This document shows positions 5,358 through 42,567 of a DNA stretch of 64,000 nucleotides, in pieces. Source of the stretch: Pedobacter sp. (GTDB taxonomy: Bacteria; Desulfobacterota; Desulfuromonadia; Desulfuromonadales; Syntrophotaleaceae); contig JBFWJC010000003.1 of NCBI GenBank assembly GCA_050253415.1, positions 1-64,000 of the forward strand. The letters are read 5' to 3'. The notes under the pieces were generated by a model that was given only the letters and a program-made list of their open reading frames with translations, was not told the DNA's origin and searched no databases. Numbering within the stretch: position 1 is the stretch's first letter; each line of letters begins with the position of its first letter. Both the position numbers and the translations under genes were made by a program.

Positions 5358-6716
5358 CTAATGCAAACATTGTAGTAAGCCCATAGCCCATTGACATGCC
5401 CCGCAGGGTTCGGCCTTCGCATAACAGTCTCGCTCGAAGTCTTCCTCCTGCAAGAGATCGCAGGGAGCGATGGTACAGTTACTACAGTAAGGATAGTCGA
5501 AGGCATGAACATTTTCGCGGAAGGTGCGAAATGTCTCATCGTTCCAAATGTTCAGCAGCGGTCCCTCGTTGATGTTGCCGAAGATCTTGGGTTTGATAAG
5601 CCGATCCCAGTCGTTGATGAAACAACGGAATTGATGCCAGAGGAAGTAACATGGGTGTACGTCTCCATTCCAAGAGATAAAGGCTCCACCGTCTTCCACG
5701 AAATCGCATTTTCTTTCGCTGTGAGGGACCGCTAAGGGCAGGTTCAGTTCGATCCCCAGTTTCTCCGCCAGCCTTTCTGCTTCGGTGAACAGGGCCAACA
5801 TCTCCGTCGAGTGATCGGCGCTGCGTTGCAACAGGCGCGGCAGGTCAAGGAACACATCCTTGCGACGTGCTTCGGCCCGCATTTTGTCCACCATTTCTAA
5901 TATCCTGGCGGTTTCAGATTCGGGTTCATTATAAAACCGGTCCATTTCCCAACAGGGATTATAATTACGTACATCTAGTCCCATGTCGGCGATCTTGTCC
6001 CGCCAGTCGGCGAAGATCTTTATGGCCTGTTCGGTCGAATTATCGTAGGCAAGCTGGGCAATGGCGGAACTATTGTAAGCCGATGCCTGGGTGACGAGCA
6101 TAAAGTCGGCGCCCCGGTCCGCGGCCCAGCGTAGAGTTGCCAACAGTTGTTGCTTGTTTTCCTGCATCAGAACGAATTCGACACCGATCTTCAGCCGGGT
6201 ATCGGGCTGGCGTTTGCGGGAGGCGGCCAAAAAGTCAAAGGCTTTCTCCATGTCGCTGAGAGCTTCCCCTTCGCGCACTTTGCTGAACGTGTCGGGTTTG
6301 ATCCCGTCTACCGACAGGCAGAGGCGGTCAAGGCCGGAGGCCACCAGATCCCGCGCCCAACGCTCGTCGAGCAGCAGGCCGTTGGACTGAAAGCCGATCC
6401 AGGATTTTTCCGGCATGGCGTGCCGGGCCCGATGGATAAAATCAAGCAAATGGGGGTGCATCAGCGACTCGCCGATACCGTTGAGCAGCAGGGCTTCGAG
6501 TTGGGGAAAGACCGGTTCCAGAGCGCTGAAGGTCTCTTCGGTCATATCGCCGTCAATGATATTGCTGTCGGCTGCCTGTTTGACGCACATGGGGCAACGC
6601 AGATTGCAAAAGGTCGTGATTTCAACAAACAGTTTGCTCGGATGATCCATGAAAGGAGCCGGCAGGGCATCGGTAAGCTGAAAAGAGGGTTGGGGTCTCA
6701 TAAGTCCTCCGGACAT
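5358..6716 (-). CDS. Radical SAM/SPASM putative metalloenzyme maturase (Geobacter type, associated with Mo/W enzymes)
   Basis: CNLRCPMC SAM motif, 'LNGIGES', SPASM cysteines 'CDF...PCYFLWH...CSNC..APC..C...PCGACQWAMGLLQC'. Confidence 0.85.
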   Translation of the reverse strand: MSGGLMRPQPSFQLTDALPAPFMDHPSKLFVEITTFCNLRCPMCVKQAADSNIIDGDMTEETFSALEPVFPQLEALLLNGIGESLMHPHLLDFIHRARHAMPEKSWIGFQSNGLLLDERWARDLVASGLDRLCLSVDGIKPDTFSKVREGEALSDMEKAFDFLAASRKRQPDTRLKIGVEFVLMQENKQQLLATLRWAADRGADFMLVTQASAYNSSAIAQLAYDNSTEQAIKIFADWRDKIADMGLDVRNYNPCWEMDRFYNEPESETARILEMVDKMRAEARRKDVFLDLPRLLQRSADHSTEMLALFTEAERLAEKLGIELNLPLAVPHSERKCDFVEDGGAFISWNGDVHPCYFLWHQFRCFINDWDRLIKPKIFGNINEGPLLNIWNDETFRTFRENVHAFDYPYCSNCTIAPCDLLQEEDFERDCYAKAEPCGACQWAMGLLQCLH

Positions 6717-7139
6717 ATGGGCAAAATTTTAGTAGCCTGATTGTTTGTCAATAAGATTGAAAGCTCTCTTTGTTTTACTAAAATCCATGCCCATTCTTCA
6801 CTGGAATTTTAAGCCCAAGAAGCGTCCGATCCTCACAGGGTAGGAATGGACTCACCTTGAAAAATCAAACCATTTAAACTTAGGCATTTGGTTCTGTCCA
6901 GTCTTGGCAGGAAATCTCGATGTTCGACCGCACCATTTTCAATTGGATATACAGGCCATCCCAATTCAACCGGTAATATGGTCACCTGTTAGGTTATCGG
7001 TCACTACAAGCCAATAAAATTTGCGCGAAAGGACATTGCACTGGCCAATCCTGAATGGAAGGATCATTGCTCATTTACCAACATTTTTACACTTTTTTTC
7101 CAACAGTAATTATTGGCAAGTATTATCAAAATCCGTCGG

Positions 7140-8678
7140 CTAGATATTGACGCTGATTCGCTCTGAGGCGTTCAATGCCTTATTGATGGCACTGATGTAG
7201 CCTTTGGCACTGGCAACGATGATGTCGGAGTCTGCTCCTAGACCCAGCACTTCGTGGCCATCAAGTTCAAGACGGACAGTGCATTCGCCGAGGGCATCCG
7301 TGCCACCGGTGATTGACCCAACTGAGAAATTAATCAGGGTCGGGTTTAACTTGGTCATTTTTTTGATCGCCTTAAATGCTGCATCGACTGGCCCGTCGCC
7401 CATGACGGCGGCCTTTTTGATTTTTCCTCTTATCTCAAGTTCGATCGTCGCTGTTGGTGCGGCGAAAGAACCACATGTAACATTTATCTGAATCAACCTA
7501 ATGACTTCAGGATTTCGGATGATTTCATCGGCGACGAGTGCGTCAAGGTCTTCGTCAAATATTTCTTTCTTCTTGTCTGCCAGGGCCTTGAAACGCACGA
7601 AAGCACTCTCTATGTCCTCTTTGGGGAGTGCGTAGCCAAGATCGTTGAGGCGGGCAATGAAGGCATGACGTCCGGAATGCTTGCCAAGAACAAGTTTATT
7701 AGTATTGAGTCCAATTGATTCGGGGGTCATGATCTCGTAAGTCTCTTTTGCCATCATCACGCCGTGCTGGTGGATGCCAGCTTCATGGGAGAACGCATTA
7801 GCGCCAACTATAGCCTTGTTCGGTTGTACACTGATGCCGGTGATAGTCGACAAGAGCTTACTAGCACCGTAAATATGAGTGGTATCGATATTATTTGCAT
7901 AAGGCATAATGTCTCGCCTGGTGCGCAAAGCCATTACCACTTCTTCAAGAGAGCAGTTTCCTGCCCGCTCACCGATGCCGTTAACGGCGCATTCGACCTG
8001 CTCTGCACCAGCCTGGATGGCTGCCAGCGAGTTGGCCACGGCCAGTCCAAGGTCGTTGTGACAGTGAACCGAGAGGGTTGCTTGGTCAATGTTCGGTACA
8101 TTGTCCTTAAGGTGCTTTATCATCTTGGAGAACTCAAAAGGGATAGCGTATCCGACTGTGTCTGGGATATTGATAGTTGTTGCACCAGCTTCGATAACCG
8201 CCTCAACCATTTCGACAAGAAAGTCGAGTCTCGTGCGGGAGGCGTCCTCGCAAGAGAACTGGACATTTGACGTATAAGTAGCTGCATGCTTGACTGCTTT
8301 AACGGCTGCTACTTTAACCTCTGCCGGTGTCATCTGTAACTTGCGCTCCATGTGGATGTCTGAGGTGGCGATGAAGATATGGATGCGGCCTCGATCGCCG
8401 GCGAATTTGAGCGCTTCCCAAGCTCGATCAATATCCTTAAAGTCAGCTCGGCACAGGCCCGCAATCTCAGGGCCTTTAATGGTCTGGGCGATTCGTTTAA
8501 CCGCTTCAAAATCTCCTTCTGATGCGATCGGAAAGCCAGCCTCAATAATATCTACATTGAGCTTCGAAAGTTGGTTTGCAAATCGCAATTTTTCTTCAAC
8601 ATTCATGCTCGCTCCGGGGGACTGCTCACCATCACGCAAAGTTGTGTCAAATATCTTTACCCGTTTAATTTTGGTCAT
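7140..8678 (-). CDS. leuA: 2-isopropylmalate synthase
   Basis: DTTLRDGEQSPG, HCHNDLG, GERAGN, HEAGIHQHG, C-terminal regulatory domain 'GDGPVDA'; RBS aaggag before Met at 8678. Confidence 0.95.
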   Translation of the reverse strand: MTKIKRVKIFDTTLRDGEQSPGASMNVEEKLRFANQLSKLNVDIIEAGFPIASEGDFEAVKRIAQTIKGPEIAGLCRADFKDIDRAWEALKFAGDRGRIHIFIATSDIHMERKLQMTPAEVKVAAVKAVKHAATYTSNVQFSCEDASRTRLDFLVEMVEAVIEAGATTINIPDTVGYAIPFEFSKMIKHLKDNVPNIDQATLSVHCHNDLGLAVANSLAAIQAGAEQVECAVNGIGERAGNCSLEEVVMALRTRRDIMPYANNIDTTHIYGASKLLSTITGISVQPNKAIVGANAFSHEAGIHQHGVMMAKETYEIMTPESIGLNTNKLVLGKHSGRHAFIARLNDLGYALPKEDIESAFVRFKALADKKKEIFDEDLDALVADEIIRNPEVIRLIQINVTCGSFAAPTATIELEIRGKIKKAAVMGDGPVDAAFKAIKKMTKLNPTLINFSVGSITGGTDALGECTVRLELDGHEVLGLGADSDIIVASAKGYISAINKALNASERISVNI

Positions 8679-8707
8679 TTTAGTCTCCTTGTATTTTTTG
8701 CCATCCG

Positions 8708-8788
8708 CTAAGGGGGAGCATGTGCCCCTTTCTTTTCCGTCGTCCAACTTTTCAACAATGCGCCTAGGTCATTTAGGTCGGATTCCAT
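8708..8788 (-). CDS. Putative 26-aa Leu-rich upstream ORF (MESDLNDLGALLKSWTTEKKGAHAPP)
   Basis: Strong RBS gggaggtga; four Leu codons (CTA, CTA, TTG, TTG); lies between the T-box terminator and leuA. Confidence 0.4.
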   Translation of the reverse strand: MESDLNDLGALLKSWTTEKKGAHAPP

Positions 8789-8823
8789 ATAATCACCTCC
8801 CTTCGTTCAAAACTTTGATGCAG

Positions 8824-9528: not shown

Positions 9529-10296
9529 TTAACTAACAACAAAATTGATGCCCGCATCAACAAAGTGAGTTTCGCCGGTCACGCCGCTGGATAGTTCGGA
9601 CAGCAGATATAAAGCCGATTTGCCAACCTCGGCCTGGGTTACCCCCCTGCGTAGTGGGGCCTGCTCGTCCACAAGCTTCATTCTTTCCTTCAGTTGGCCG
9701 ACTGCAGACGCGGCCAAAGTTTTTATCGGGCCGGCAGAGATGGCATTGACACGAATACCTTTCTCGCCTAACTCGGCGGCCAGGTATCGCGTCGAAGCCT
9801 CCAAGGCAGCCTTTGCAACGCCCATGACGTTATAGTTGGGAACAGCCCGTTGGGCACCGAGGTAGGTCATGGTGACTATGCTGCCGCCCTTCTTCATCAA
9901 AGGCGTTGCGGCACGGCTTACAGCCACCAATGAATAGGCGCTTATATCCATAGCCAAGGCAAACCCTTCACGGCTTGTCTGGCTGAAGGGGTTCTGGAGG
10001 TCTTCACGATTGGCAAAGGCTACCGCATGAACCACAAAGTCGAGTTCTCCCCATTTTTCGCCGACTGTTTTGAACACTGCTTCCACATCCTCATTTTTGG
10101 ACAAGTCGCAAGGCAAGATTAGTTCGGCATCAAGTTTTTCCGCCAGAGGTCTGACCCGTTTTTCCAACGTATTGTTAAGATAGGTAAAAGCCAGCGTAGC
10201 GCCTGCGGCTTTGACTTGCTTGGCAATCCCCCAAGCGATACTCTTGTCGTTGGCAACGCCAAGAATAATTCCACGTTTCCCGGCCATCAAACCCAT
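9529..10296 (-). CDS. fabI: Enoyl-ACP reductase (NADH)
   Basis: 'GVANDKSIAWGIA', 'YNVMGVAKAALE', 'ISAGPIKTLAA'. Confidence 0.95.
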   Translation of the reverse strand: MGLMAGKRGIILGVANDKSIAWGIAKQVKAAGATLAFTYLNNTLEKRVRPLAEKLDAELILPCDLSKNEDVEAVFKTVGEKWGELDFVVHAVAFANREDLQNPFSQTSREGFALAMDISAYSLVAVSRAATPLMKKGGSIVTMTYLGAQRAVPNYNVMGVAKAALEASTRYLAAELGEKGIRVNAISAGPIKTLAASAVGQLKERMKLVDEQAPLRRGVTQAEVGKSALYLLSELSSGVTGETHFVDAGINFVVS

Positions 10297-10553: not shown

Positions 10554-12284
10554 TTAGAAATTCCAGAATGTGTCTAGTTCCTCGTTACTCATGTCCCACC
10601 CAACATTGTGAGGAGGAAGTGGCTCTGCAAAAAATTCAGGTAGGCGGTCATGTACATTGGTAAATCCCGCACCCTGATTGAATGCACGTTCGGTCTTGAG
10701 GATAGCTTTACCCATCTCTTCGTACTCTTCTATTGTCTGATTGAGGCCGTACCTTGCGTTAATCATTTCGACTAGAGCCTCATAACTCTCGGGTACAGCC
10801 GACAAAATCATGCAAGGTATATGGCAAAGTCCAATTGAGTCGGTAAGCGCATCTTCAATCTGAAGGTGTCGGCCTTTCTCTACCTGACCTTCATTTTTTA
10901 GGGGATCGAGGCGGCCGCCAATGCCAAAAAGATTGGGACCAACAGCCCATCCTGCAGTATGGTCGGCGCCCATTGGTGATGTGGCATAGGTAACGCCAAA
11001 ACCCTTGATGGTCCTGGGGTCATAAGCGGAAATTGCTTGGTTTTTTACAACGGGTACCCTTGAAACGCCATAGGCTTTCCCAACCGAACCGGCGCCGTTG
11101 CCAAGAATGCGGCCGAGCGGTGTCCCTTGGCGTATTTCCTCATTGATCAAACGATATGCTTCCTCACCATCACCCCAAGGCAGAATATCGGCATCCATGG
11201 CAACACCTATGGCTACCGCAGTGTCAATGGAATCGACACCAATATCGTCCATGGCCCAGTCGCATCTTGCAACGATATCCAGATCGTTTATAAGAGTGTT
11301 GCTGCCCATGAGATTGATGGTTTCGTATTCAAAACCCGATGTTACATAATTACCATCTTTGTCATTGTAGGTTTGCGAACACTTCACGATGCAACCGTTC
11401 AGGCAACCATGAGACGGATGGCCGTTGCGGGATACGATCACGTCATACATGTGTTCACCAGATATTTCCTCCGCCCTTTCGTTTTGCCCGTACCGGAAGT
11501 TTTTAGTGGGGAAGGCCCCAGCACCATTGATGATGTTGACCATCAAGTTGGTACCGTATTTAGGCAGCCCTTCACCGGTTACCGGAAAACTAATCAGGGC
11601 TTTGGCAAAATTTTTGGCATTCTCTTTGAATTTTTCGGGATCCGCAAGCGTGACCGCGGTCGCGCCGGTGTCATCAATGGTAATGTATTTGAGCCTTTTA
11701 GAACCCATTACTGCGCCGCCACCACCGCGCCCATGGCTGCGGATGTTACCGTCAGGGTCTTTTACGGAAATATTGGAGGCGGTCATTTTGAATTCGCCTG
11801 CAGGACCAATGGCGAGGGCGCCGATCTTTTTGCCCATTTTTTCATTGAGTGCACGAAATACCTCGTAGTTTCCTTTTCCGATGTATTCAGCGTCTTCTTT
11901 AATGGTTGCACCATCCTTGTTGATATGGATGCTGTACCACTTGTCTTCCTGGGGCATTCCTTCGATTATTACTGCTTTAAATCTAAGCTTTACCAGGTTC
12001 AGCGCCGCATTTCCTCCTGCGCTGCTTTCTTTGATGCCACCGGTGAGAGGACTTTTAAATCCGGCGGAAAGGCGTCCGCAATTCGCGGCTGCGGTACCCG
12101 ATAAGAGGCCGGGCGCAAATACGAGTTTATTGTTCTTTCCGAGGGGGTCACACGTTGGGGGCACTTCCTCTGAAATAATAGTGGAAGTCAATCCACGTCC
12201 ACCGAGATAGGCCCAGTTATCTGGTACTGGCTCAATGGTACTCGTCAGACTGGTCATGTTAATGCGAAGAATCTTTGTTTCCAT
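10554..12284 (-). CDS. aor: Aldehyde:ferredoxin oxidoreductase (tungsten-type AOR family)
   Basis: 'KSPLTGGIKESSAGG', 'GRGGGGAVMGSKRLK', Fe-S cysteines 'GCLNGCIVKC' and 'DSIGLC', 'EYET', 'DRLPEFF'. Confidence 0.93.
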   Translation of the reverse strand: METKILRINMTSLTSTIEPVPDNWAYLGGRGLTSTIISEEVPPTCDPLGKNNKLVFAPGLLSGTAAANCGRLSAGFKSPLTGGIKESSAGGNAALNLVKLRFKAVIIEGMPQEDKWYSIHINKDGATIKEDAEYIGKGNYEVFRALNEKMGKKIGALAIGPAGEFKMTASNISVKDPDGNIRSHGRGGGGAVMGSKRLKYITIDDTGATAVTLADPEKFKENAKNFAKALISFPVTGEGLPKYGTNLMVNIINGAGAFPTKNFRYGQNERAEEISGEHMYDVIVSRNGHPSHGCLNGCIVKCSQTYNDKDGNYVTSGFEYETINLMGSNTLINDLDIVARCDWAMDDIGVDSIDTAVAIGVAMDADILPWGDGEEAYRLINEEIRQGTPLGRILGNGAGSVGKAYGVSRVPVVKNQAISAYDPRTIKGFGVTYATSPMGADHTAGWAVGPNLFGIGGRLDPLKNEGQVEKGRHLQIEDALTDSIGLCHIPCMILSAVPESYEALVEMINARYGLNQTIEEYEEMGKAILKTERAFNQGAGFTNVHDRLPEFFAEPLPPHNVGWDMSNEELDTFWNF

Positions 12285-12354
12285 TTTTTATGCTCCTCTT
12301 CCCTTTGATGAAACTTCTCTTGGGGGGACCTCAAACCTGCTGGAACGGTTCCTG

Positions 12355-12462
12355 ATAAAATCTCCTTTTCAAGCATGGGAGGCACCGCTGTTTCCAACGG
12401 AACCCATCGGCCTGGCCTCCATAAGGACCTTCCCCGTAGGAAACCACGCTCGGAGATCAAAA
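12355..12462 (-). ncRNA. Moco/Tuco RNA motif (putative Mo/W-cofactor riboswitch) in the aor leader
   Basis: Minus strand: atCTCCGAGC...cctacgg...ccttatgg...ggccgatGGGTTccgttgGAAAcagcggtGCCTCCC...gaaaAGGAGat, matching the conserved Moco-motif segments. Confidence 0.8.
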
Positions 12463-12631
12463 GTTCGATGATGCCGTTTGCCACTGACGCAATGTTAAGA
12501 AATTAGACCCAAACCATTAGGTCGCAACTTTGTTGTTTTTTGTTATGTTAAGAACGAATAGGGTAAATTGGGTTTTATATAGCTTTGTAACTGCTATTAA
12601 ACATTGCTGGCGCGTTTTTTTGATTTATATA

Positions 12632-12647
12632 GGCAACACTTGTGCCA
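12632..12647 (-). promoter_or_regulatory. sigma54 (-24/-12) promoter of aor
   Basis: TGGCACAAGTGTTGCC (GG-N10-GC). Confidence 0.8.
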
Positions 12648-21999: not shown

Positions 22000-23337
22000 A
22001 TGGCTTATACCGAAATGTATGGACAAAAGCTTGTAACGGCCGACCAGGCCGTCAAAATCGTAAAACCGGGGGATTGGGTAGATTATGGCTGGTGTCTCGG
22101 TCATCCTGTAGCTACCGATAGAGCTCTGGCGGGTCGGGTCGCGGAGCTTTCGGATATCAAAGTTCGGGGTGGAGTCTCGCTTTGGATGCCGGAAATCTGT
22201 AAAGTTCCAGAGCCGCAAAATCACTTTACCTGGAATGCTTGGCACTGTTCCGGCATCGACCGTAAGATTATAGACTTGGGGTGTGGCTATTACGGACCGA
22301 TGCGCTATTCGGAACTCCCCCGGTTTTACAGGGAAGGCCTCGATCCCATCGATGTGGCCATGTTCCAGGTCGCGCCGATGGATGAGGACGGCTATTTTAA
22401 TTTCGGACCGCAGGCCTCCCACTTGATGGCGGTTTGCGAGCGTGCCAAGGTTATCATTGTAGAGGTAAACCGTAATATGCCCCGTTGTCTGGGCGGGATC
22501 GAGGCGGCCATTCATATCTCACGGGTGGACCATGTCGTCGAAGGGGACCATCCGCCTTTGGCGCAGTTGAATGCCGCTCCCCTCACCGATGTGGATCAAA
22601 AGGTTGCGGAGTTCATTGTGGAAGAGATCCACGACGGCGCCTGTTTGCAGCTCGGGATCGGTGGCATGCCCAATGCCGTCGGAACCCTGATCGCCGAATC
22701 CGATCTGAAGGACCTCGGCGTGCATACGGAAATGTACGTCGATTCTTTTGTCGAGATGTCCCTGCGGGGCAAGATCAACGGTGCGCGCAAATCGATCGAT
22801 CGTTTCCGCCAGGTCTTTGCTTTTGCTGCCGGGTCGCAAAAGATGTACGACTTCATTGATAATAATCCAGAAATGATGAGTTGTCCTGTAGATTATTGCA
22901 ATGATGTTCGCAATGTTGCCGCCATCGACAATTTTGTATCGATCAACAACGCCGTAGAAATAGATCTTTTTGGGCAGGTTTCCTCAGAATCCGCCGGGAT
23001 CCGGCACATAAGTGGTACAGGTGGGCAACTCGATTTTGTTATGGGTGCTTATCTCTCCAGAGGGGGGAAAAGCTTTATCTGCCTGTCTTCTACTTATAGC
23101 AGGGGCGGGGAGGTAAAATCCCGCATCGTACCGACCCTGGCCCCGGGCAGTATCGTCACCGACAGTCGTACCTGTGTACAGTGGGTGGTAACGGAATTCG
23201 GCAAGGTCAATCTCAAAGGCAAGAGTACTTGGGAGCGTACCGAAGCCCTTATCTCCATTGCTCATCCCGATTTTCGTAATGAATTGCTTCGGGAGGCGGA
23301 TAGGATGAATATTTGGCGAAACAGAAACCGGGTTTAA
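22000..23337 (+). CDS. Acyl-CoA:acetate CoA-transferase (butyryl-CoA:acetate CoA-transferase / acetyl-CoA hydrolase family)
   Basis: '[11 protein letters not shown]', '[13 protein letters not shown]', 'GVHTEM', '[10 protein letters not shown]', 'IAHPDFR'. Confidence 0.9.
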
Positions 23338-27377: not shown

Positions 27378-28595
27378 ATGGTCGATGCAGTAACTAAGCG
27401 AATGTTTAATAATAAACTTGCAGAGGGTTTCGCGGGGATCACTTTGTGTTTTGTAGCATCAATGGTCTTGTGGCCCCTCTGGTCACTTGTTGCACAGAAA
27501 TTTTTCTCTCTTATAGCAAGTCAGGGATTGGCTGCTGCAGGTCCAGAGCTCTCAGTCAAGCTTCTCGGTGCGATGGTTGAGAGCAGTTTTATGTGGATGG
27601 TGGTCTGTGCATGGATTTGGATGTCACTTATTTTCGATAATTTCGGTAAAACCGTATTTACCAAAAAACAACCATTTGCCGGAATCTCTTATTTTGTTGT
27701 TGGAATGGTATTGGGGACCATCGGTTTTCTTGTACTGATTGGGTTCATTGGCATTTGGTGGAAGCCCTTTAATCTTGGAGTTATGTTTAGCCCTGCAAAT
27801 GCATCTGAAGCTGAAATGGCTCTTAAGGGGTGGGAGGCATCCAATTTTTATTCTCTGATGGTTGTGATGGTGCAGATCGCATTCGCTTCGTTAATGCATA
27901 AGTGGCCCTTTGCTGGTACATCGAAGGAGCCGATCGCTAGCTTTGGTGTTTTTGCTTTTAGTACTTGCGCTACTTACATCGGCTGGGTGGCTCTTGTTGT
28001 GCCGAGCTTTATGCCCCTGAGCATCGATGGGGCAACGATTATTAATGTTCCGTTTGGCTCTTTCCCTTCCTTTGTTGCTTTTGCTCTCGGGTTTATTTTC
28101 TTTTCGGTACTGCCTGTCGAGGGCGGTGAGTTGTATCCGATGGTATTTTTTGCCAAAAAGCAGCCTTATATGGGGATGGTCGGAGTGCTGTTTGCTATTG
28201 CTGGTGGGTTTGTTCTCCCGGCTGTCACCAGGGGTATTGTTGAACCCTTGAATCTCCTTCCGGGAGCACCTGTAGACATCGTTGTCTCTTCCCTTGAGCT
28301 TACCGTGATTATAATGATGCTGGCTTGGCATCATCTGTTTGAAAGTTATCCGAGTCCCAATCTTGTTCCAAACTCCGGTGTCAGGATTTTGGTACGCATA
28401 ACCATCTGGGTCGTAAGTGGCTCTGTTCTTGGAGTTCTCTGGATTAAGTTTTTCCCGCTCTTGCCGATTGGTGGAAACAATCTTGGTCTGGGCTTTCATA
28501 CAATGGGTGTATTGGCCGGACAGTTTACCTTTTTGTTGACGTTGCTCTTTTTCGATACGTTTTGGGATAAGTGGCCGTTAATTCGTAAAGCGTGA
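27378..28595 (+). CDS. Polytopic inner-membrane protein, putative transporter of unknown specificity
   Basis: About 10 hydrophobic segments; internal repeated 'KKQP' and 'KWP/YP' motifs; RBS aggag. Confidence 0.75.
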   Translation: MVDAVTKRMFNNKLAEGFAGITLCFVASMVLWPLWSLVAQKFFSLIASQGLAAAGPELSVKLLGAMVESSFMWMVVCAWIWMSLIFDNFGKTVFTKKQPFAGISYFVVGMVLGTIGFLVLIGFIGIWWKPFNLGVMFSPANASEAEMALKGWEASNFYSLMVVMVQIAFASLMHKWPFAGTSKEPIASFGVFAFSTCATYIGWVALVVPSFMPLSIDGATIINVPFGSFPSFVAFALGFIFFSVLPVEGGELYPMVFFAKKQPYMGMVGVLFAIAGGFVLPAVTRGIVEPLNLLPGAPVDIVVSSLELTVIIMMLAWHHLFESYPSPNLVPNSGVRILVRITIWVVSGSVLGVLWIKFFPLLPIGGNNLGLGFHTMGVLAGQFTFLLTLLFFDTFWDKWPLIRKA

Positions 28596-32644: not shown

Positions 32645-34744
32645 ATGAAATTGAAACTGCGTGGGAAATTGATATTGCCGATTCTTGCCGGCATTTTGAT
32701 TGGAATGGTAATTGTTGGTAGTTTGTCTTACCGGGCTTCTCGGTTCGCGTTGGAGGATCTCACTCAGGTTCAACTTGCTGAGAGATCCACCGAACTAGCT
32801 AGGCGGTACGCAGAGTTTTTCGATGACGTTAGCGTAAATGTGGCCGTGATGAGCAAGCAGAGCTTTGCGCTCGATCTTTTCGATGAAAATGGCAATGTTT
32901 CCTATGCCGGGGTTCCTTCCGCCAACCGTGCGTTGAAGGAAATGTGTGACGATCTCGGTGGGTATGAATATTTGGCTTTGCTCGGTATTGATGGAATGGT
33001 TGTCGCGTCATCGCATCTTTCAACTGTCGGGAAGATGGACCTTTCTCAGCGTTCCTATTTCAAGGATGCCATGGCAGGAAAGACGACTTTCTCTGAGGTC
33101 TTTCGAAGTAATGTGACTGGAAACCCGACCCTAATTGTAGCTGCCCCGGTTGTTAAGAACGGTCGGCCAGCAGGAGTATGCCTTGGTTCTGTAAATCTTA
33201 ATTATTTCAGCAAAGAATATATAAATCCAGTACGTATTGGTAAACGTGGTTATGCGTATGTGGTCGATCGCCAGGGGATTTTTCTAGCACACCCAAATGC
33301 TGAAAATATTTTAAATAAGGGGATTTCTGAATACGATTGGGGGCAACAGATTCTCAGCACTGAGAAGGGTATGCAACATTATCTCTGGCAGGGTAATCAG
33401 AGAATCGTGGCTTATCAGCGCGTATTGAAGACGGGCATGGTGGTCGTTGTAGGTGCCGAAAAGAACGATATATATGCGCCCTTGGCGCGTATTCGTAATT
33501 TGACCATACTGGTTACCGTTCTGACTCTGATTGTGGTTGGTAGCATCATCCTTATAATAGCCAATTCCATCGTTAGGGCGTTGCATTCCGCGGTGGCATT
33601 TGCAGGGGATATTTCAATAGGTGACGTAACTAAACGACTCAGCTTCAAGCGGGATGATGAGCTTAAAGAGTTGGCTGAAGCACTCAATATCATTGCCGAA
33701 GGGGAGGAGAAAAAAGTAGAGCTAGCCGGGCTAATCGCCGATGGTAACATGGATATTGAAATCAAACCGGCCTCGGATAAAGATCTCCACGGCAAGGCGT
33801 TGGTAGTGATGATGGATAAGCTAAACGAGGTATTAGCGCAGATGCAGTTGGCAGGAGTGCAAATAGCCGCTGGCTCAGAACAGATTTCGGATGCCAGTCA
33901 GAGCTTGTCGCAGGGAGCAACCGAGTCCGCATCTTCCCTCGAAGAGGTTTCTGCTTCAATGGTTGAACTTGGATCTCAAACCCGATTTAATGCAGATAAT
34001 GCAAACAAGGCGAATGAGCTGGCAATGCACTCGAGAGATGCCGCACAGAAAGGCAATCGTCAAATGTCGCAGATGGTTGAGGCCATGGAGGAGATCAGTG
34101 TATCCGGGCAGAACATTTCCAAGATAATAAAAGTCATTGACGAAATCGCATTCCAAACTAATCTACTTGCCCTTAATGCCGCCGTCGAAGCAGCTCGTGC
34201 CGGTCAGCATGGCAAGGGATTTGCTGTGGTCGCAGAGGAGGTGCGTAGCTTGGCGGCCCGCAGTGCTACCGCTGCCCGTGAAACGGCAGAACTGATCGAG
34301 GGGTCGGTCAGTAAAACGCAAAATGGAAAAATGATAGCCAACCAAACGGCTGTGGCGTTGAAGGAGATAGTTGAAGGTGTCTCCAAGGTCACCGATCTGA
34401 TAAGTGAAATCGCGGCTGCTTCCAATGAGCAGGCGACCGGAATCGATCAGATCAATCAGGGCTTGTCACAGATCGATCAAGTAACCCAACAAAATACGGC
34501 AAATGCCGAAGAAAGTGCGGCGGCGGCCGAAGAGCTTGCTGGTCAGGCAGAGCATATGAGGATAATGCTTTCACATTTTACTGTGCGTCAAATGAAACGC
34601 AGTCCGGTTTTCTCTCCTAGCAATGGATCGTCTTCGATAACCACATTTGAGAATGCTAAGCATCGCAGGGATTTGCCGATTCTAGCGAGCGAACCTGCGC
34701 CAGGACAGGTTATCGCTCTTGACGATGGCCATATCGGAAGATAG
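32645..34744 (+). CDS. Methyl-accepting chemotaxis protein (dCache sensor, HAMP)
   Basis: Two TM segments, Cache motifs 'RSYFKDAM' and 'GYAYVVDRQG..LAHP', signalling hairpin 'IAFQTNLLALNAAVEAARAGQHGKGFAVVAEEVR'. Confidence 0.95.
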   Translation: MKLKLRGKLILPILAGILIGMVIVGSLSYRASRFALEDLTQVQLAERSTELARRYAEFFDDVSVNVAVMSKQSFALDLFDENGNVSYAGVPSANRALKEMCDDLGGYEYLALLGIDGMVVASSHLSTVGKMDLSQRSYFKDAMAGKTTFSEVFRSNVTGNPTLIVAAPVVKNGRPAGVCLGSVNLNYFSKEYINPVRIGKRGYAYVVDRQGIFLAHPNAENILNKGISEYDWGQQILSTEKGMQHYLWQGNQRIVAYQRVLKTGMVVVVGAEKNDIYAPLARIRNLTILVTVLTLIVVGSIILIIANSIVRALHSAVAFAGDISIGDVTKRLSFKRDDELKELAEALNIIAEGEEKKVELAGLIADGNMDIEIKPASDKDLHGKALVVMMDKLNEVLAQMQLAGVQIAAGSEQISDASQSLSQGATESASSLEEVSASMVELGSQTRFNADNANKANELAMHSRDAAQKGNRQMSQMVEAMEEISVSGQNISKIIKVIDEIAFQTNLLALNAAVEAARAGQHGKGFAVVAEEVRSLAARSATAARETAELIEGSVSKTQNGKMIANQTAVALKEIVEGVSKVTDLISEIAAASNEQATGIDQINQGLSQIDQVTQQNTANAEESAAAAEELAGQAEHMRIMLSHFTVRQMKRSPVFSPSNGSSSITTFENAKHRRDLPILASEPAPGQVIALDDGHIGR

Positions 34745-34952: not shown

Positions 34953-35426
34953 TTGGAATATAAAGAACAGGATGTGGACACTTACTTCTCTGTAAATTTG
35001 AGCGGGGAGGTGGGCTGGCTATCCTTTGATGCTCCTTCCCTGATGGGGGATTCTCTGCGTTTCGTTTCCGGGGAAAAAAATGGAAAGCGTTATCGTGTCC
35101 ATTATTACAAAGATACCAATGGACAATTGTGTGCACGCATTTGGTTCGGGCCTGATACTGAGGGGCCTCGTGGGCATTCTCATGGTGGAGCTATAGCGGC
35201 GGTTCTCGACGAAGCATTGAGCCTTGCTGCTTGTGCCAGAGGATTTTCGGCTGTAATGGGCCATCTCAGTGTCAGGTTCCGTAACATGCTTCCCCTTGAG
35301 CATGTTGTGACGGTTCAGACTGAGGTTATGTCGGTCAAAGGCCGCAGGGTTTCTGTACGAGGTCGAATATGTTTGGGTAAGAAGATTTTTGCCGAGGCAG
35401 AAGGGCTTTGTATTGTCATTTCATAG
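34953..35426 (+). CDS. PaaI-family thioesterase
   Basis: 'EGPRGHSHGGAIAAVLDE'; RBS ggaggagg before TTG. Confidence 0.85.
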   Translation: MEYKEQDVDTYFSVNLSGEVGWLSFDAPSLMGDSLRFVSGEKNGKRYRVHYYKDTNGQLCARIWFGPDTEGPRGHSHGGAIAAVLDEALSLAACARGFSAVMGHLSVRFRNMLPLEHVVTVQTEVMSVKGRRVSVRGRICLGKKIFAEAEGLCIVIS

Positions 35427-35572: not shown

Positions 35573-36723
35573 TATTGCATAATTGAGATAGTTATGTAAT
35601 TAAAAACGCTTAGACAGTTATGAAGCCGGAGTAGAGCATATACCCAATTATTAGAATCAGCATTTCATTTATCTCTTTAGATGATTATTTCTTGTCAGCT
35701 TTGTATATATCTCATCAGCTAATTACTAGTATTCTCTGTTTTACCAAATGCTAAACCACTTAGACTATAATTTAAGCCGATAAGTAATGCTGTCAGTGCC
35801 CATCATGATACCGTTTTTTTTATAGATGCCATTGTACTAAAATGGTGGCAGATATAAACTAAAATCCAAAAATCAAATAACTTTCACTTTTACATATATT
35901 TTTTGTTTCCAGATATATATCTGCTCAGAGGTTGGTAAATTGCCTCAATGTTTTTATCAAAGTAAGTTTGTTTAATCCATGTATAAGAAATCTTTATCAA
36001 TTTCGTGTAGTTTTTAGAAGTTTTTTTCCTCTTACAGCCTTCCTTTTTTATTATCCCATAAATTTTCTGATGTCATATGTGCACGTGTAGTAATCCTATT
36101 CCTCCCCCCGTTTTATATTGCTAGAGGTACATTTTGTCCTTAGCTACTTAAAACCTTTCTATTGTCGCTTTTGAAAATACTTCAAGCAAAAGGTTCTTAT
36201 CTTCAAAAAGTTCTTCATTCATGAAAAACATGGGACTTGGGGCTGTACATATTTGGCCAGGTTTGTTGGGGAAATATAGTTGATGGACTTTTTTTTTATG
36301 GGGGGGTGAAAAAAACTACTTAACTGTCTTTAAATTTGACAAATCCCTTGTTTGTAGGTTGGGACCTCTTGAGGTGGAGGCTTAGGGGGGGGCGCTAAAA
36401 AAGTTACTTTCTATGGGTAGCTATGTTTTTCCGAGGAACAATATCGCAGTGAGAAGCAAAAGAAATCAAGCTGCAAAGAATTATGGTCCCGATATTGATC
36501 GACTCACCAAGTATCTCAGTGACTAATTGATAAGGATAGAGTCTGAGTCTTAAAGTTTAGATTGTTTACGAAAAACGTTTTTTAGCTCTAAAAAGTAGTA
36601 TTCAAATTCAAACAAAAAATCACTGTATGTGTAACAATTTTTTCAATACCCTGTATGCCAAGAAATAATTTACCATGCTGCATAAGTATTTGAAAACACA
36701 GTGAATTTTATTGTTCTTTAAAC

Positions 36724-38481: not shown

Positions 38482-38745
38482 TATATTGTAGTTGTTAACA
38501 GGTATTACATAGATTTCTAAAACTACATAAATATAACCTATATATTAATAAATAAGTTTCGCCAATGTATAATATGTAGGTTAGTAGTTAATTATAATGA
38601 TTTGGTAGAAATGTCCTTCTTCAGATGTAAATATTAGAAGGTCATTTCTACTTATTTAATTAAAAATTTAAACCAATATAACTTATGTGAAAATAATCGA
38701 TTTATAAACATGCTTGAAAAATTATAATATTAAGAAAGGTTGTTT

Positions 38746-39819
38746 ATGCCAAAAACTCCAAAAACTTTAGTTTTAAATTTCGGATCAACTTCTTCAAAGG
38801 TTGCAATTTACACGGGTTCAGATGTAGAAAAATCAGAGTCAATAAGTCATCCTACAGATGAACTTAAACAGTTTGTGACTATTTGGGATCAGTTCGAGTA
38901 TAGGCAGGAGAAAGTACTCAAGTTACTTGAAGAATGGAATGTTGACATCTCTGATATTGATGTAATTTCCTGCCGTGGCGGTTGCATAAAGCCTTGTCCA
39001 GCAGGAATATATGCAATAAACGATAAAATGATTGAAGACATTAAAAGCCAAAAGTATGGTATTCATCCAACTGGATTAGGAAATATTATAGCTGTAAATC
39101 TTAGTAAAAAATATAATATACCTGCAATAACTGTAGATACCCCTGCTTCAGACGAATTTTGTCCAGAGGCTAGGTTCTCCGGCCTTCCACAAATATCCAG
39201 AAGAAGTTCGTTCCATGTGTTGAATCAAAAAGCAACGGCAAGAAAAGTCGCTGCTGAAATGAATAAAACATATGAAGAAATGAACATGGTTGTCGCGCAT
39301 CTTGGAGGGGGGATCTCTGTCGGTGCTCATAAACAAGGTAAGATTATCGACGCAAATAATGCACTCGATGGTGATGGACCTTTTTCACCAGAGCGCGCTG
39401 GGACTCTTCCTGCTGCAGATTTTGCCAGATTGTGCTTCAGTGGTGAATACACCGAGCCGGAGGTCAAAAAGCTTGTGACAAACGGTGGTGGACTTATGGG
39501 CTATTTAAATACAACTGATGCAAGGGAAGTCGAATCGCGTATTGCCAATGGGGATAGTAAAGCTGAACTGGTTTATAACTCCATGATTTATCAGGTAGCT
39601 AAAGAAATTGGTGCCTGTGCGGCCGTTTTGGATGGGGAAGTAGACGCGATAGCGCTCACCGGAAGCTTGTCTTATTCTGACTATGTAATCAGCCGACTTA
39701 CAAAAAAGATTTCATTTATAGCCAAAGTGTACGTGAACCCCGGCGAAAACGAACTGCAAGCGTTGGCAGAAGGGGCGGTTAGATTCTATAACGGAACTGA
39801 AAAGTTGCTCGAATATTGA
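38746..39819 (+). CDS. buk: Butyrate / branched-chain carboxylate kinase
   Basis: 'NFGSTSSK', 'CRGG', 'HVLNQKA', 'VAHLGGGISV', 'GPFSPERAG', 'PGENE'. Confidence 0.92.
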   Translation: MPKTPKTLVLNFGSTSSKVAIYTGSDVEKSESISHPTDELKQFVTIWDQFEYRQEKVLKLLEEWNVDISDIDVISCRGGCIKPCPAGIYAINDKMIEDIKSQKYGIHPTGLGNIIAVNLSKKYNIPAITVDTPASDEFCPEARFSGLPQISRRSSFHVLNQKATARKVAAEMNKTYEEMNMVVAHLGGGISVGAHKQGKIIDANNALDGDGPFSPERAGTLPAADFARLCFSGEYTEPEVKKLVTNGGGLMGYLNTTDAREVESRIANGDSKAELVYNSMIYQVAKEIGACAAVLDGEVDAIALTGSLSYSDYVISRLTKKISFIAKVYVNPGENELQALAEGAVRFYNGTEKLLEY

Positions 39820-39834
39820 TAGAGGATTGATAAT

Positions 39835-40731
39835 ATGATTAAAAACCTGAATGAAATTTTTGAAAAAATAAAAAACAGTGACAAAAAAACGATTGCAATT
39901 GCGTGTCCTGAAAATGATGTCACTATAAAAACAGTTATTGCGTGCCGTGAAAAAGAAATAGCCGATTTTATCTTGGTTGGAGATAAGGAAATAATTTCAC
40001 AACTTTTATTAGACGCTGATCAAGATACATCACAATTCGAAATCGTTGATATTAAAACTCATAAGGAAGCAGCCGAAAAAGCCGTTCATCTCGTTGTAGA
40101 TGGGAAGGCAGATGTTGTAATGAAGGGAGACTTACATACAAGCGTATTTATGAGGGCTGTCCTGAATAAAGAAAAAGGTCTTAATGCAGGGCAAAAGATG
40201 AGTGAATGCACGATTATTGAAAAAATTCAAGGTGAAGGTCTTCAATGTATCACTGATTGTGCAATGAATATCAGCCCGAACTTGGAAGATAAAAAGCAAA
40301 TTATTGACAATGCCGTTAACTTACTTATCAAGCTTGGGGTCCAAAAGCCGAAAGTAGCGCTTTTGTCCGCTCTTGAAGTTGTAAACCCTTCAATGCCCGA
40401 TACGATAGATGCAGCAGTGCTGTGCAAAATGGCTGATAGAGGGCAAATTAAAAATGCTATCATTGATGGTCCACTTGCTCTTGATAATATTTTATCTTTA
40501 GAGGCTGCAAAGAAAAAGAAAATTGAAAGCCCGGTAGCAGGTGATGCCGATATTATAGTCGCTCCAGATATGACCGTGGCAAACGTTCTCCGAAAAGCTA
40601 TTACTTTTTACGCTAATAAGATGACTACAACTACTTTGGTTGGTGCCAAAGCTCCAGTTGTCATGACATCTAGAACTGAGCCAGTAGAAGGTAAATTACT
40701 TTCAATTGCAATAGCAGTATATACCTCCTAA
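39835..40731 (+). CDS. ptb: Phosphate butyryltransferase / phosphate acyltransferase
   Basis: 'VMKG', 'TDCAMNISP', 'DGPLALDN', 'SPVAGDADI', 'PVVMTSR'; adjacent to buk. Confidence 0.88.
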   Translation: MIKNLNEIFEKIKNSDKKTIAIACPENDVTIKTVIACREKEIADFILVGDKEIISQLLLDADQDTSQFEIVDIKTHKEAAEKAVHLVVDGKADVVMKGDLHTSVFMRAVLNKEKGLNAGQKMSECTIIEKIQGEGLQCITDCAMNISPNLEDKKQIIDNAVNLLIKLGVQKPKVALLSALEVVNPSMPDTIDAAVLCKMADRGQIKNAIIDGPLALDNILSLEAAKKKKIESPVAGDADIIVAPDMTVANVLRKAITFYANKMTTTTLVGAKAPVVMTSRTEPVEGKLLSIAIAVYTS

Positions 40732-41379
40732 AAAACAATTTAGAATAAAAGTACAAAATTTTATAAATTTCCGCGATAAAATAGAAACAACAATACATTT
40801 ATATGGTTGATATTAGTCAGTCAACTAAAAAAGGCAATATGACAAAAAACTAAGCCGCGTGCTTAAAGTCAATCACTACAAATAGTTAAAACTTAGTAGT
40901 GGAAGGATTTTAAGTACAACAGTAAGTTGTATGAACAAATATGGTTTTTTTTAAAGGTTTTTTTGTGTTTATAGAGGCGTGATAATGTGTCAAGCATCAT
41001 CTGCTTGATTATTGTCATTGAAAAAGCCGAGAATGTGGGCTTGCAGGACCTGCCATTTTCGGTGTTCCAAATGGGGGGGATTCCTCCCCCCCCCCATTTG
41101 GAACGGTTTGTTATTGAAAAAATTCGTTAGAGTAAACTATTGTTTTAGATTCGCTTTGGCGCAATTTATGAAATTCTCACGTAAAGTACCAATATTTTCA
41201 ATCTACTACATTTTTAATTTCGATATTTTCCGTGTCACTATTCAAACTTTAAGCCACCTCGTAATAGGACACCTAGAAAATGACGTTACGTTGCAACCTT
41301 TCTTTACGGATATATTGGTTAGGTGATGTCCGGTGCAATTTAAGACAAAATATTCAAAATTTGCATTCATGGAGTTTCT

Positions 41380-42567
41380 TTGAAGGCTGAACATTATAAA
41401 CCAACACATCTTGTTTTTGGCGGTGGTACGCTATCGCAGCTCGGCAAAGATGTACGAAGGTACGGTCAAAAGGCCCTTGTCGTTACTGGAGTCAACAGTG
41501 TTAAGCGTTATGGAACGATGCCTCGCGTGATTGCTAGCCTGCAGGCATTCGGTATTGCAGTAGTCGAATGCTCCGGTGTCGAGTCGAATCCACGAATATC
41601 CTCGGTTGTGCGCGGGGTGCAGATTGCCCGTGACCAAAATTGTGACGTTATTATTGCTTTGGGCGGTAGCAGTGTTATAGATGCTGCTAAGGTTATGGCT
41701 GCTGCCGTCTATTACGAAGGCGAGCCCTGGGACATGTTCTATCACAGCCTGGGAAAGGTGTACTTGCCGACCCGAGCTTTGCCCATCGTTACTGTGCCGA
41801 CCTTGATCACTACCGGTTCTGAAAGAAACAACGCTGCCGTTGTTTATAATGATAAAACTAACCTGAAATCGTTCATCGTATCCGATCTCCTGTATCCCCG
41901 TATTACCCTAGTGGATCCTGAACTAACCTTGAGTGTACCTCAGGATCAAACCGCTTACGGGGTATGTGATCTAATTACCCGGGTGACCGAAGGTTACTTG
42001 ACCGGCTTTGATGGATCGCAGCGCCAGGAAGGTTTTTTAGCCAGAGTTATCCAAACTGCTATGGAATGGGGACCGAAGTCGGTCTTCAATGGCAGCGACC
42101 TCGAAGCACGTACACAAATACAATGGGCCTCAGTGGTCGCTTTTAACGGTTGGGCACAGGTCAGTATCAACTATGCACCGCTGGTGTTTTTGTTGGCCCA
42201 TACCCTATGCGCTTATCACGATATTTCCCACGGTGCTGCTCTGGCGGTGGTTAACCTGGCATGGATGCGTTTTGCTGTCAGGACCCACCCTGCGAGATTT
42301 GCCCAATTTGCCCGCCGCATTTTCGGCCTCCGTTTGAACGGTGAAAATGTTGCCGAATTGGCAAAATCGGGCATTGATCATTTCGAGGCTTTCTTGAAAT
42401 ACATTGGTTGCCCGACACGCCTGCCAGAATTAGGCATCGGCGACAAGTTATTACATAGATATGCGAAGGATACGTTGCTCTTCCTTCGGGACGATAATAG
42501 TAACCTTCCCGGAAGTATAGTAATAAGTGAGTCGGATATTATCAATGTATTGATGTTGGCACTGTAG
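41380..42567 (+). CDS. Iron-containing (butanol dehydrogenase-like) alcohol dehydrogenase, apparently degenerate
   Basis: 'GVESNPR', 'ALGGSSVIDAAK', 'VDPELT', 'HGAAL'; expected metal-ligand histidines replaced. Confidence 0.75.
   Translation: MKAEHYKPTHLVFGGGTLSQLGKDVRRYGQKALVVTGVNSVKRYGTMPRVIASLQAFGIAVVECSGVESNPRISSVVRGVQIARDQNCDVIIALGGSSVIDAAKVMAAAVYYEGEPWDMFYHSLGKVYLPTRALPIVTVPTLITTGSERNNAAVVYNDKTNLKSFIVSDLLYPRITLVDPELTLSVPQDQTAYGVCDLITRVTEGYLTGFDGSQRQEGFLARVIQTAMEWGPKSVFNGSDLEARTQIQWASVVAFNGWAQVSINYAPLVFLLAHTLCAYHDISHGAALAVVNLAWMRFAVRTHPARFAQFARRIFGLRLNGENVAELAKSGIDHFEAFLKYIGCPTRLPELGIGDKLLHRYAKDTLLFLRDDNSNLPGSIVISESDIINVLMLAL

Follow-up and report, generated by a model that had tools for sequence, protein, structure and literature searches.

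Gene content and setting of the island

We analysed the first 64 kb of contig C3 (the window) of a 4.1-Mb genome in 18 contigs, which the names of homologs place in the Desulfuromonadales and probably in the Syntrophotaleaceae, and describe here a low-GC gene island that carries a predicted alcohol-to-acid oxidation system. Six-frame open reading frames (ORFs) of the window were scanned against Pfam and NCBIfam, RNAs were sought with Rfam and tRNAs with ARAGORN. A first-pass annotation, made from the letters alone, had listed outer-membrane channels, a duplicated alcohol dehydrogenase (ADH), an aldehyde:ferredoxin oxidoreductase (AOR), an aldehyde dehydrogenase (ALDH), CoA-level enzymes and regulators. 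These scans placed every one of these items where it had been reported, and also recovered leuA, fabI, panB, trpD, a tRNA and an Fe-ADH that the list had left out of the same span. The features that bear on the proposed system are the following.

5358..6716, minus strand: radical SAM/SPASM protein, putative metalloenzyme maturase (TIGR04311, 635 bits against a cut-off of 400)
10554..12284, minus strand: AOR, predicted non-acylating aldehyde branch (PF02730 AFOR_N, 214 bits; PF01314 AFOR_C, 230 bits)
12346..12467, minus strand: riboswitch of the Moco/tungsten-cofactor type within the leader of AOR (RF01055, full length, 67 bits; gathering score 36)
13491-15419, plus strand: soluble PAS-PAS histidine kinase (Pfam domains)
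15434-16849, plus strand: NtrC-type sigma54 response regulator with receiver, sigma54-interaction and HTH_8 domains
18431-19528, plus strand: Zn-ADH copy 1 (ADH1), protein 100% identical to copy 2
20003-20890, plus strand: OM1, Phenol_MetA_deg outer-membrane protein after ADH1 (Pfam; signal-peptide-like N-terminus)
20988-21557, plus strand: thioesterase 1, 4HBT_2 (Pfam)
22000..23337, plus strand: family-I CoA-transferase, butyryl-CoA:acetate type (TIGR03948, 778.9 bits against an equivalog cut-off of 674.8)
24765-25862, plus strand: Zn-ADH copy 2 (ADH2), protein 100% identical to copy 1
26167-27039, plus strand: OM2, Phenol_MetA_deg outer-membrane protein after ADH2 (Pfam; signal-peptide-like N-terminus)
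27378..28595, plus strand: polytopic inner-membrane protein, 405 aa, with no Pfam or NCBIfam family
32645..34744, plus strand: methyl-accepting chemotaxis protein (MCP) with a periplasmic dCache domain (MCPsignal 183 bits, dCache_1 106 bits; two hydrophobic segments)
34953..35426, plus strand: thioesterase 2, 4HBT hot-dog (PF03061, 35.8 bits)
37093-38481, plus strand: stand-alone CoA-acylating ALDH of the AdhE-N-terminal type, 462 aa, without an ADH domain
38740-39819, plus strand: buk, butyrate-type kinase above both equivalog cut-offs (TIGR02707, 463 against 289.1; NF002834, 469 against 222)
39835-40731, plus strand: ptb, Ptb-type phosphotransacylase (PF01515 PTA_PTB, 148 against 24)
41380..42567, plus strand: Fe-ADH, butanol-dehydrogenase/YqhD type (1vlj, an NADH-dependent butanol dehydrogenase, 253.5 bits)

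Composition and synteny mark the stretch between window position 1 and ~43,090 as horizontally acquired DNA. The GC content is 0.38-0.44 across 12-42 kb (0.50 at the CoA-transferase gene) and 0.49-0.57 to the right, and the large contigs of the genome lie at 0.54-0.55. The right flank from ~43,091 is syntenic in all three congeners searched, and in two of them the DUF711 gene that starts this flank abuts the homolog of C4:18496 onward, which indicates that C3:1-43,090 is inserted relative to the congeners. With recombinase genes at window positions 108-1322 and at C4:122-3594, the segment combines deviant composition (~40% against ~54% GC overall), mobility genes and an empty locus at the same place in relatives, and the island status given to it in the first-pass annotation was borne out. 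The left end is undefined, because the window begins at a contig end and its bases 1-127 are also present, 100% identical, where C1 ends and where C2 starts; the assembly was probably interrupted at this point by a recombinase trio that forms a repeated mobile element.

Segment C4:1-18,495 probably makes up the rest of this insertion and includes an integrase fragment where the contig starts, an Integrase_2 protein of 1021 aa, an epimerase, an Xre-type antitoxin and several proteins that belong to no family. Next to a TetR regulator it encodes an Oxidored_FMN protein of the old-yellow-enzyme type; an ene-reductase would fit unsaturated aldehydes. The cargo in the window is a mosaic: for the radical-SAM gene, leuA, fabI, AOR, the kinase and regulator genes, the CoA-transferase gene, trpD and thioesterase 1 the family contains relatives at the DNA level (67-83% identity), and none was found there for ADH, OM2, the unnamed membrane protein, panB, ALDH or buk. 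A groundwater metagenome from a separate study contains short, low-depth contigs identical to the island.

The two Zn-ADH genes lie in a 1230-nt repeat (18366-19595 = 24700-25929) of 99.6% identity. In the probable source run the repeat forms one 1211-base contig at a read depth of 95, with its neighbours at 41-47, about half, and the duplication is real. The regions upstream of ADH1 and ADH2 have diverged apart from a few conserved boxes, and OM1 and OM2 share no BLASTP similarity. A single ADH gene has thus been copied or converted into two different cassettes. Bit scores place the enzyme in the benzyl-alcohol-dehydrogenase clade, in agreement with its earlier assignment: the solved relatives 5tnx and benzyl alcohol dehydrogenase 1f8f score 382 and 336 bits, against at most 209 for class I/III ADHs. 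It reached no NCBIfam cut-off. Its nearest relatives are metagenomic (72-77% identity), many at 59-72% bear the automatic JGI label 'aryl-alcohol dehydrogenase', and the best other match among 233 genomes of the order is at 46%.

The N- and C-terminal AFOR domains span the full length of the AOR, which aligns over residues 4-558 with the solved 9mqx (270 bits) and 1aor (247 bits). Four native paralogs share 59-60% identity with it, and the AOR of a cluster in the congener G196 shares 68%. The riboswitch in its leader is the sole Rfam family at gathering level in the window and points indirectly to a tungsten or molybdenum pterin cofactor. The AOR and the cofactor RNA of the first-pass annotation were confirmed. 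The radical-SAM protein scores only 215 bits against the tungsten-cofactor maturase model TIGR04317 (cut-off 380) and has three paralogs in the genome (80, 59 and 59% identity). Its gene is separated from AOR by 3.8 kb, in which leuA and fabI lie; a functional link to AOR is possible.

The ALDH aligns over its full length with acetylating enzymes, the best solved relative being the acetylating acetaldehyde dehydrogenase 5j78 (365 bits), followed by AdhE N-terminal halves (334-342 bits); it scores 414 bits against TIGR02518, under the cut-off of 620. Its relatives stand at 86-87% and 68-71% identity in metagenomes and then at 59% or less, and the organism names given by the sources are all those of anaerobes, mostly Geobacter or Desulfuromonadales. 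The ptb product, single-copy in the genome, is by its family scores clearly a Ptb-like member of the PTA_PTB superfamily; it scores 305 bits against the phosphotransacylase part of subfamily NF006045, compared with 282. Solved 4-hydroxybutyrate CoA-transferases score 259-303 bits with the CoA-transferase, which is 80% identical to a native copy on contig C2. Thioesterase 1 is 63% identical to a thioesterase beside native beta-oxidation genes, and no solved structure matched it with an E-value of 0.001 or below; for thioesterase 2 the best solved relatives are THEM4 and THEM5, a weak likeness at 43-46 bits.

Ring-cleavage or beta-oxidation families were not found among the window ORFs scanned, as the first-pass annotation had said; beta-oxidation genes lie elsewhere in the genome, at C2:229-236 kb. 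The benzoyl-CoA pathway enzymes Had and Oah are missing from the genome (TIGR03201, best 105 bits against a cut-off of 339; TIGR03200, no match). An aromatic acid would therefore not be degradable via the benzoyl-CoA route, which fits its excretion. The 649-nt spacer from ptb to Fe-ADH contains a G7/C10 hairpin, AATGGGGGGGATTCCTCCCCCCCCCCATT, at 41070-41098; the length of such homopolymer runs can vary. An ORF at 41012-41326 (104 aa) belongs to no Pfam or NCBIfam family and was judged spurious by its odd composition.

A shared palindrome and the sigma54-type promoters

The PAS kinase has no hydrophobic segment, and would thus sense a cytoplasmic signal. The regulator and the kinase are 72% and 54% identical to a pair in G196. 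By comparing the ADH1 and ADH2 upstream regions and listing palindromes, we traced a palindrome of the form TGTC-N9-GACA that accompanies sigma54-type elements.

12632..12647 (consensus 12633-12647), minus strand: AOR sigma54-type promoter TGGCACAAGTGTTGCC, exact TGGCAC-N5-TTGC, upstream of the riboswitch and 347 nt before the start codon
12795..12811, strandless: AOR palindrome TGTCGTAAAAGACGACA, predicted activator site, 147 nt upstream of the promoter
17896-17912, plus strand: ADH1 palindrome TGTCTAAAAAGTTGACA, gap to the promoter 145 nt
18058-18073, plus strand: ADH1 sigma54-type promoter TGGCATGATAGGTGCT, GG/GC spacing right, leader 357 nt
21733-21762: terminator-like hairpin after thioesterase 1
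24219-24235, plus strand: ADH2 palindrome TGTCAAAAATGACGACA, gap to the promoter 144 nt
24380-24395, plus strand: ADH2 sigma54-type promoter TGGCATGATGTATGCT, GG/GC spacing right, leader 369 nt
27149-27173: terminator-like hairpin after OM2
36325..36341, strandless: ALDH palindrome TGTCTTTAAATTTGACA, exact match
36484: weak ALDH sigma54-like element TGGTCCCGATATTGAT, 142 nt downstream of the palindrome, no GC at -12, leader 593 nt
36724: second ALDH promoter candidate TGGCACACAAATTGA, likewise with no GC at -12

The palindrome occurs five times in the 64-kb window against 0.53 expected, and none of 100 shuffles reached five. Four of the five are intergenic, before AOR, ADH1, ADH2 and ALDH; all four have A/T-rich spacers, and a GG-N10-type element stands 142-147 nt away from each. 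The whole genome contains 80 palindromes of this form, nine of them with a sigma54-like element at 120-175 nt. The island sites account for four of these nine; in the remaining five the spacers are G+C-rich and the elements poorer. Taken by itself, the sigma54 consensus shows no enrichment in the window (8 against 4.75 expected; 12 of 100 shuffles reach 8), so that only the combination of palindrome and element is informative. The boxes of the ADH1 promoter region are conserved in the region upstream of ADH2.

An activator with the domains of a sigma54 two-component system, -24/-12 promoters before AOR, ADH1 and ADH2, and palindromes 144-147 nt upstream of them are thus found together in the island, and the shared palindrome at a fixed promoter distance before AOR, ADH1, ADH2 and ALDH predicts one regulon. 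From the promoter sites and hairpins, the predicted units are AOR; ADH1-OM1-thioesterase 1; ADH2-OM2; and ALDH-buk-ptb. TGTC-N9-GACA with its ~145-nt spacing is the new part of this analysis, and co-regulation of the AOR, ADH and ALDH units is probable on the motif geometry. The leaders are unusually long, at 347-593 nt (12285-12632, 18074-18430, 24396-24764 and 36500-37092); an Rfam E-value scan of 12-43.3 kb found no leader element besides the Moco riboswitch.

The unnamed membrane protein, related clusters and other cargo

The unnamed membrane protein encoded after OM2 returned 114 matches. Of these, 113 are relatives at 42-65% identity over at least 93% of the length; the remaining one (51% over 65% of the length) carries methyltransferase domains. 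The few named hosts are all anaerobes (Geobacter, Geomonas, Desulfosporosinus, Sporomusa, Syntrophorhabdaceae and Dehalococcoidia), and some relatives carry the automatic label 'AAT family amino acid transporter'. An AlphaFold2 model was confident (pLDDT 87, pTM 0.87). With it, Foldseek gave no convincing solved fold (best E 0.037, TM 0.18), and the best natural protein in VIA-align reached Z of at most 4.6, the two top rows being de novo helical designs. On this model no fold would be assignable to the protein, which does not imply a new one.

The family is rare, occurring in 2 of 401 genomes in a sample of the phylum and in 10 of 401 in a sample of the class, this genome included. The nine other carriers in the class sample all come from one other family of the class, where 7 of 8 loci fetched show an acyl-CoA synthetase gene, a DcaP-like outer-membrane gene and then the membrane-protein homolog, adjoined by a dCache kinase with a sigma54 regulator and by a CoA-transferase. 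These seven count as one independent context because all are one syntenic locus. In genome G384 the homolog is split over three frames, and a metagenome scan with the protein gave 30 pattern matches and no relatives. The protein is likely a permease coupled to an outer-membrane channel.

The logic of the island recurs in a native cluster at C2:226-253 kb. In order, with identities to the island proteins, this cluster encodes a thioesterase (63%), an acyl-CoA dehydrogenase, a FadB-like protein, a thiolase, an acyl-CoA synthetase, a PAS kinase, AOR (59%), Buk (44%), a SatP-type protein, ALDH (56%), a CoA-transferase (80%), Pta, a sigma54 regulator (58%), an Fe-ADH and a Phenol_MetA_deg channel (42%). 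Its Buk gene is immediately preceded by a consensus sigma54 promoter, TGGCACTTGGCTTGC. In G196 the regulator (72%), kinase (54%) and AOR (68%) lie beside an Fe-ADH and two channels (45% and 52%). Among 74 ADH loci of other species, two, both in metagenome-assembled genomes of uncultured deltaproteobacteria, combine an ADH homolog (56-63%) with an adjacent AOR-family gene and LIV-type ABC transporter. Of 233 genomes of the order, 10 encode Ptb, the best identity being 57%, and the family's 16 other genomes all lack it; at the eight Ptb loci fetched in the order, buk is always paired with it and AOR adjoins once. A metagenome scan with the ALDH returned 41 loci, all at 51% identity or less and none with buk or ptb, the known relatives at 86-87% not being among them. 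Most of the 41 show ALDH followed by an Fe-ADH-like stretch, which we read as AdhE-type fusions.

The remaining cargo of the island comprises the following features.

108-1322, minus strand: GmtY-like recombinase (238 bits, under the cut-off of 340)
between the recombinase and radical-SAM genes, minus strand: alpha/beta hydrolase and DUF554 protein (Pfam/NCBIfam scan)
7140-8747, minus strand: leuA (Pfam/NCBIfam)
9529-10296, minus strand: fabI (Pfam/NCBIfam)
28875-29732, plus strand: panB (Pfam/NCBIfam)
between panB and trpD, plus strand: 117-aa ORF
30476-31525, plus strand: trpD (Pfam/NCBIfam)
32147-32221, plus strand: tRNA(CAT) (ARAGORN; Rfam score 37 bits)

The leuA, fabI, panB and trpD genes are second copies, 75, 79, 51 and 68% identical to the other copies of the genome, and 2-oxoisovalerate is a common substrate of LeuA and PanB. 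The tRNA(CAT) is unlike the four other tRNA(CAT) genes of the genome (best other match 81% over 42 nt), and the genome showed no direct repeat of it; it may be a tRNA that the island carries or what is left of an integration site. In the right core of the window, 50490-63629 holds nitrogen-fixation-type genes: a homocitrate-synthase-like gene, a ModABC-like transporter that includes a TOBE domain, a gene for a radical SAM protein, a CobW-type GTPase and nitrogenase component 1.

The proposed pathway, competing readings and known systems

On balance, and with some reserve, we favour reading the island as a self-contained sigma54-dependent regulon that oxidises an imported, rather hydrophobic primary alcohol to a carboxylic acid, a second edition of the genus's own alcohol-to-acid module. 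The alcohol would cross the outer membrane through either of the two unrelated Phenol_MetA_deg-family barrels, and the Zn-ADH, encoded in identical copy before each barrel, would convert it to the aldehyde. The aldehyde would then be split between the tungsten-type AOR, yielding acid and reduced ferredoxin, and the CoA-acylating ALDH, yielding acyl-CoA and NADH, from which Ptb and Buk would form acid and ATP. The CoA-transferase and the two thioesterases may be alternative ways of handling the CoA ester. The soluble PAS kinase and its NtrC-type partner would switch on the four units via TGTC-N9-GACA ~145 nt upstream of each promoter. What the analysis shows are the identities of the genes, the insertion, the clusters of paralogs and the geometry of the motif, whereas flux direction, co-induction and substrate are inferences. 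The Pelobacter-type logic of two branches with substrate-level phosphorylation, as put forward in the first-pass annotation, fits the gene content and recurs in the native C2 and G196 clusters. By gene content, the island differs from the native AOR-Buk-ALDH-CoA-transferase-Pta cluster in having Zn-ADH for Fe-ADH and Ptb for Pta.

Several observations weigh against this reading. The modules are split by panB, trpD, leuA, fabI, a tRNA and predicted terminators, and the exact gene combination of the island was not found elsewhere in the loci searched: no channel, ALDH, buk or ptb occurred at any of the 74 ADH loci, and no ALDH stood beside buk-ptb at the eight loci fetched in the order. The synteny suggested earlier as a check thus turned up the shared logic in the C2 and G196 clusters and not the combination itself. 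Ptb lies under both Ptb equivalog cut-offs (TIGR02706, 333.8 against 410.5; NF004472, 336.8 against 399). The ALDH promoter lacks the conserved GC at -12 and implies a leader of 593 nt, so that the membership of the ALDH unit would rest mainly on its palindrome; as the palindrome was not found in the paralogous G196 and C2 clusters, these provide no conservation cross-check of it. The other context of the unnamed membrane protein is one of acid uptake and activation. Finally, all enzymes of the set are reversible, and the direction is hence an assumption.

As to the substrate, we would expect an alcohol with an acyl-CoA that fits the butyryl-type enzymes, either a C3-C8 one (aliphatic, branched or allylic) or an aryl-alkyl one; benzyl alcohol going to benzoyl-CoA is less likely. 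Arguing for a short- or medium-chain aliphatic alcohol are a CoA-transferase and a kinase of butyryl type, an Fe-ADH that resembles butanol dehydrogenases, and the occurrence of the channel and thioesterase families beside native beta-oxidation genes. The ADH clade and the missing Had and Oah would favour an aromatic or allylic one. The aryl or unsaturated substrate named in the first-pass annotation was not upheld: it follows solely from the ADH clade, and the CoA-transferase and Buk are butyryl-type and the Fe-ADH butanol-type. It is quite unlikely that the island serves an aromatic alcohol (benzyl, hydroxybenzyl or cinnamyl) whose aroyl-CoA, made by ALDH, gives ATP via Ptb and Buk while the aromatic acid is excreted. 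The clade of the Zn-ADH (1f8f 336 and 5tnx 382 against 209 bits for class III) and the JGI name of its relatives at 59-72% agree with such a route; the enzyme is, however, ~45-50% identical to the solved members, and the source names are automatic. The channels belong to a family named for phenol degradation, which also occurs in the native cluster by the acyl-CoA dehydrogenase, FadB-like and thiolase genes. Excretion of the acid would be consistent with a genome lacking Had and Oah, but both the CoA-transferase and Buk score above equivalog cut-offs specific for butyryl substrates, butanol dehydrogenases are the closest relatives of the Fe-ADH, thioesterase 2 resembles the acyl-CoA thioesterases THEM4/THEM5, and the nearest named ALDH relatives are acetaldehyde-type proteins of Geobacter/Desulfuromonadales. 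According to a 2026 preprint on gut acetogens, Ptb/Buk homologs adjoin oxidoreductases that make aromatic or branched acyl-CoAs (10.64898/2026.01.29.702580); our single literature search on Ptb or Buk acting on aroyl-CoA found no such paper. We regard a truly aromatic substrate with ATP gain via Ptb and Buk as unlikely. Equally doubtful is the wider proposal of a novel substrate class for a Pelobacter-type syntroph (aromatic, aryl-alkyl or allylic alcohols), with dedicated barrels and an unnamed membrane family, Ptb/Buk acting on a non-butyryl acyl-CoA, and one sigma54 activator reading TGTC-N9-GACA at ~145 nt.

Two further readings concern the direction and the unity of the island. Flux could run in reverse, with an acid taken up by channel and unnamed membrane protein, activated by the CoA-transferase or by Buk/Ptb, or reduced directly by AOR at the expense of reduced ferredoxin, and then converted to alcohol via ALDH and ADH as an electron sink. 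The reversibility of every enzyme in the set allows this, and the membrane-protein homolog following an acyl-CoA synthetase and a DcaP-like gene (7 of 8 loci, one syntenic locus) is an acid-uptake context; the island itself, by contrast, has no acyl-CoA synthetase in the Pfam scan. The P. carbinolicus genome paper (PMC3543383) describes a reductive use of acetyl-CoA reductase in its fermentations, yet the published physiology of the genus is one of alcohol oxidation. Growth substrates also come with a chemoreceptor, two ADH-paired uptake channels and sigma54 induction more often than electron sinks do; we judge reverse flux distinctly improbable. The island might otherwise be a mosaic of unrelated cargo, in which AOR, the ADHs and the channels form an aldehyde and alcohol detoxification set, ALDH-buk-ptb and Fe-ADH a separate butyraldehyde/butyrate module, and panB, trpD, leuA, fabI and the MCP are passengers. 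Mixed origins (only some genes have DNA-level relatives in the family, at 67-83%), a CoA-transferase gene of 50% GC inside DNA of 40% GC, hairpins after thioesterase 1 and OM2 and between ptb and Fe-ADH, the tRNA gene between trpD and the MCP gene, and the weak ALDH promoter would all suit such a mosaic. The exact palindrome before ALDH, however, is one of five in 64 kb and has an A/T-rich spacer as in the AOR/ADH sites, and the native C2 cluster unites exactly these functions in one place; we consider such a mosaic of unrelated cargo quite unlikely.

If the favoured reading of a sigma54-dependent alcohol-to-acid regulon holds, an alcohol-oxidising, ATP-yielding module with its own sensor, promoters and channels would be mobile between anaerobes as one island, which would bear on how landfill and aquifer syntrophs gain new solvent or alcohol substrates. 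The four fixed-spacing sites form a directly testable predicted operator for an uncharacterised sigma54 activator, and the unnamed membrane-protein family is a candidate new permease.

Among known enzymes, the Zn-ADH aligns over its full length with the Acinetobacter benzyl alcohol dehydrogenase 1f8f and the Burkholderia 5tnx (336 and 382 bits) and shares their GHE and Cys-rich zinc motifs, the residues of which we take to be zinc ligands. It differs from them in being ~45-50% identical and in reading FMPWKG in place of LIVRDQ after the HTD motif, and the substrate range would not be readable from this alignment. Clostridial-type Ptb-Buk systems carry out substrate-level phosphorylation from butyryl-CoA or branched-chain acyl-CoA. 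As in these, buk and ptb are adjacent in the island and Buk passes TIGR02707; unlike them, the island Ptb is below the Ptb cut-offs, and the pair follows an acylating ALDH and is rare in the order.

In ethanol oxidation by Pelobacter, two acetaldehyde-oxidising activities and ATP formation via acetyl phosphate were measured in two species, P. carbinolicus and P. acetylenicus, according to PMC4275255. The island resembles this system in its two predicted aldehyde branches, which in Pelobacter are a viologen-linked, tungsten-dependent one to the acid and an NAD-linked one to the CoA ester, and in predicted ATP formation via an acyl phosphate. It is unlike it in that the Pelobacter substrate is acetaldehyde, handled with Pta and Ack, whereas the island kinase and CoA-transferase are butyryl-type and its ADH is of another superfamily.

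A close precedent is the route proposed for P. carbinolicus, which, in PMC3543383, takes 1-propanol and 1-butanol by way of propanal or butanal and on through acetaldehyde dehydrogenases, phosphate acetyltransferases and a propanoate/butanoate kinase; Pcar_2850-2853 are Pta, ALDH, Buk and aorA4. The pathway logic of the first-pass annotation was thus already in print for C3/C4 alcohols, and its novelty was to that extent overstated; its remark that no characterised pathway was known to make ATP from an aroyl-CoA via Ptb/Buk agrees with our literature search. The P. carbinolicus route, itself a genome-based proposal, likewise runs from alcohol to aldehyde, acyl-CoA, acyl-phosphate and acid with ATP, with a butyrate-type kinase and an AOR gene in the set, and the native C2 cluster has the same composition. 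The island departs from it in having a Ptb-type enzyme for Pta and a benzyl-alcohol-clade Zn-ADH for Fe-ADHs, in adding two channels, the unnamed membrane protein and its own regulator pair, and in being foreign DNA. In conclusion, the biochemical logic as such is not new, and the island carries a variant of a route that had been put forward for the group before.

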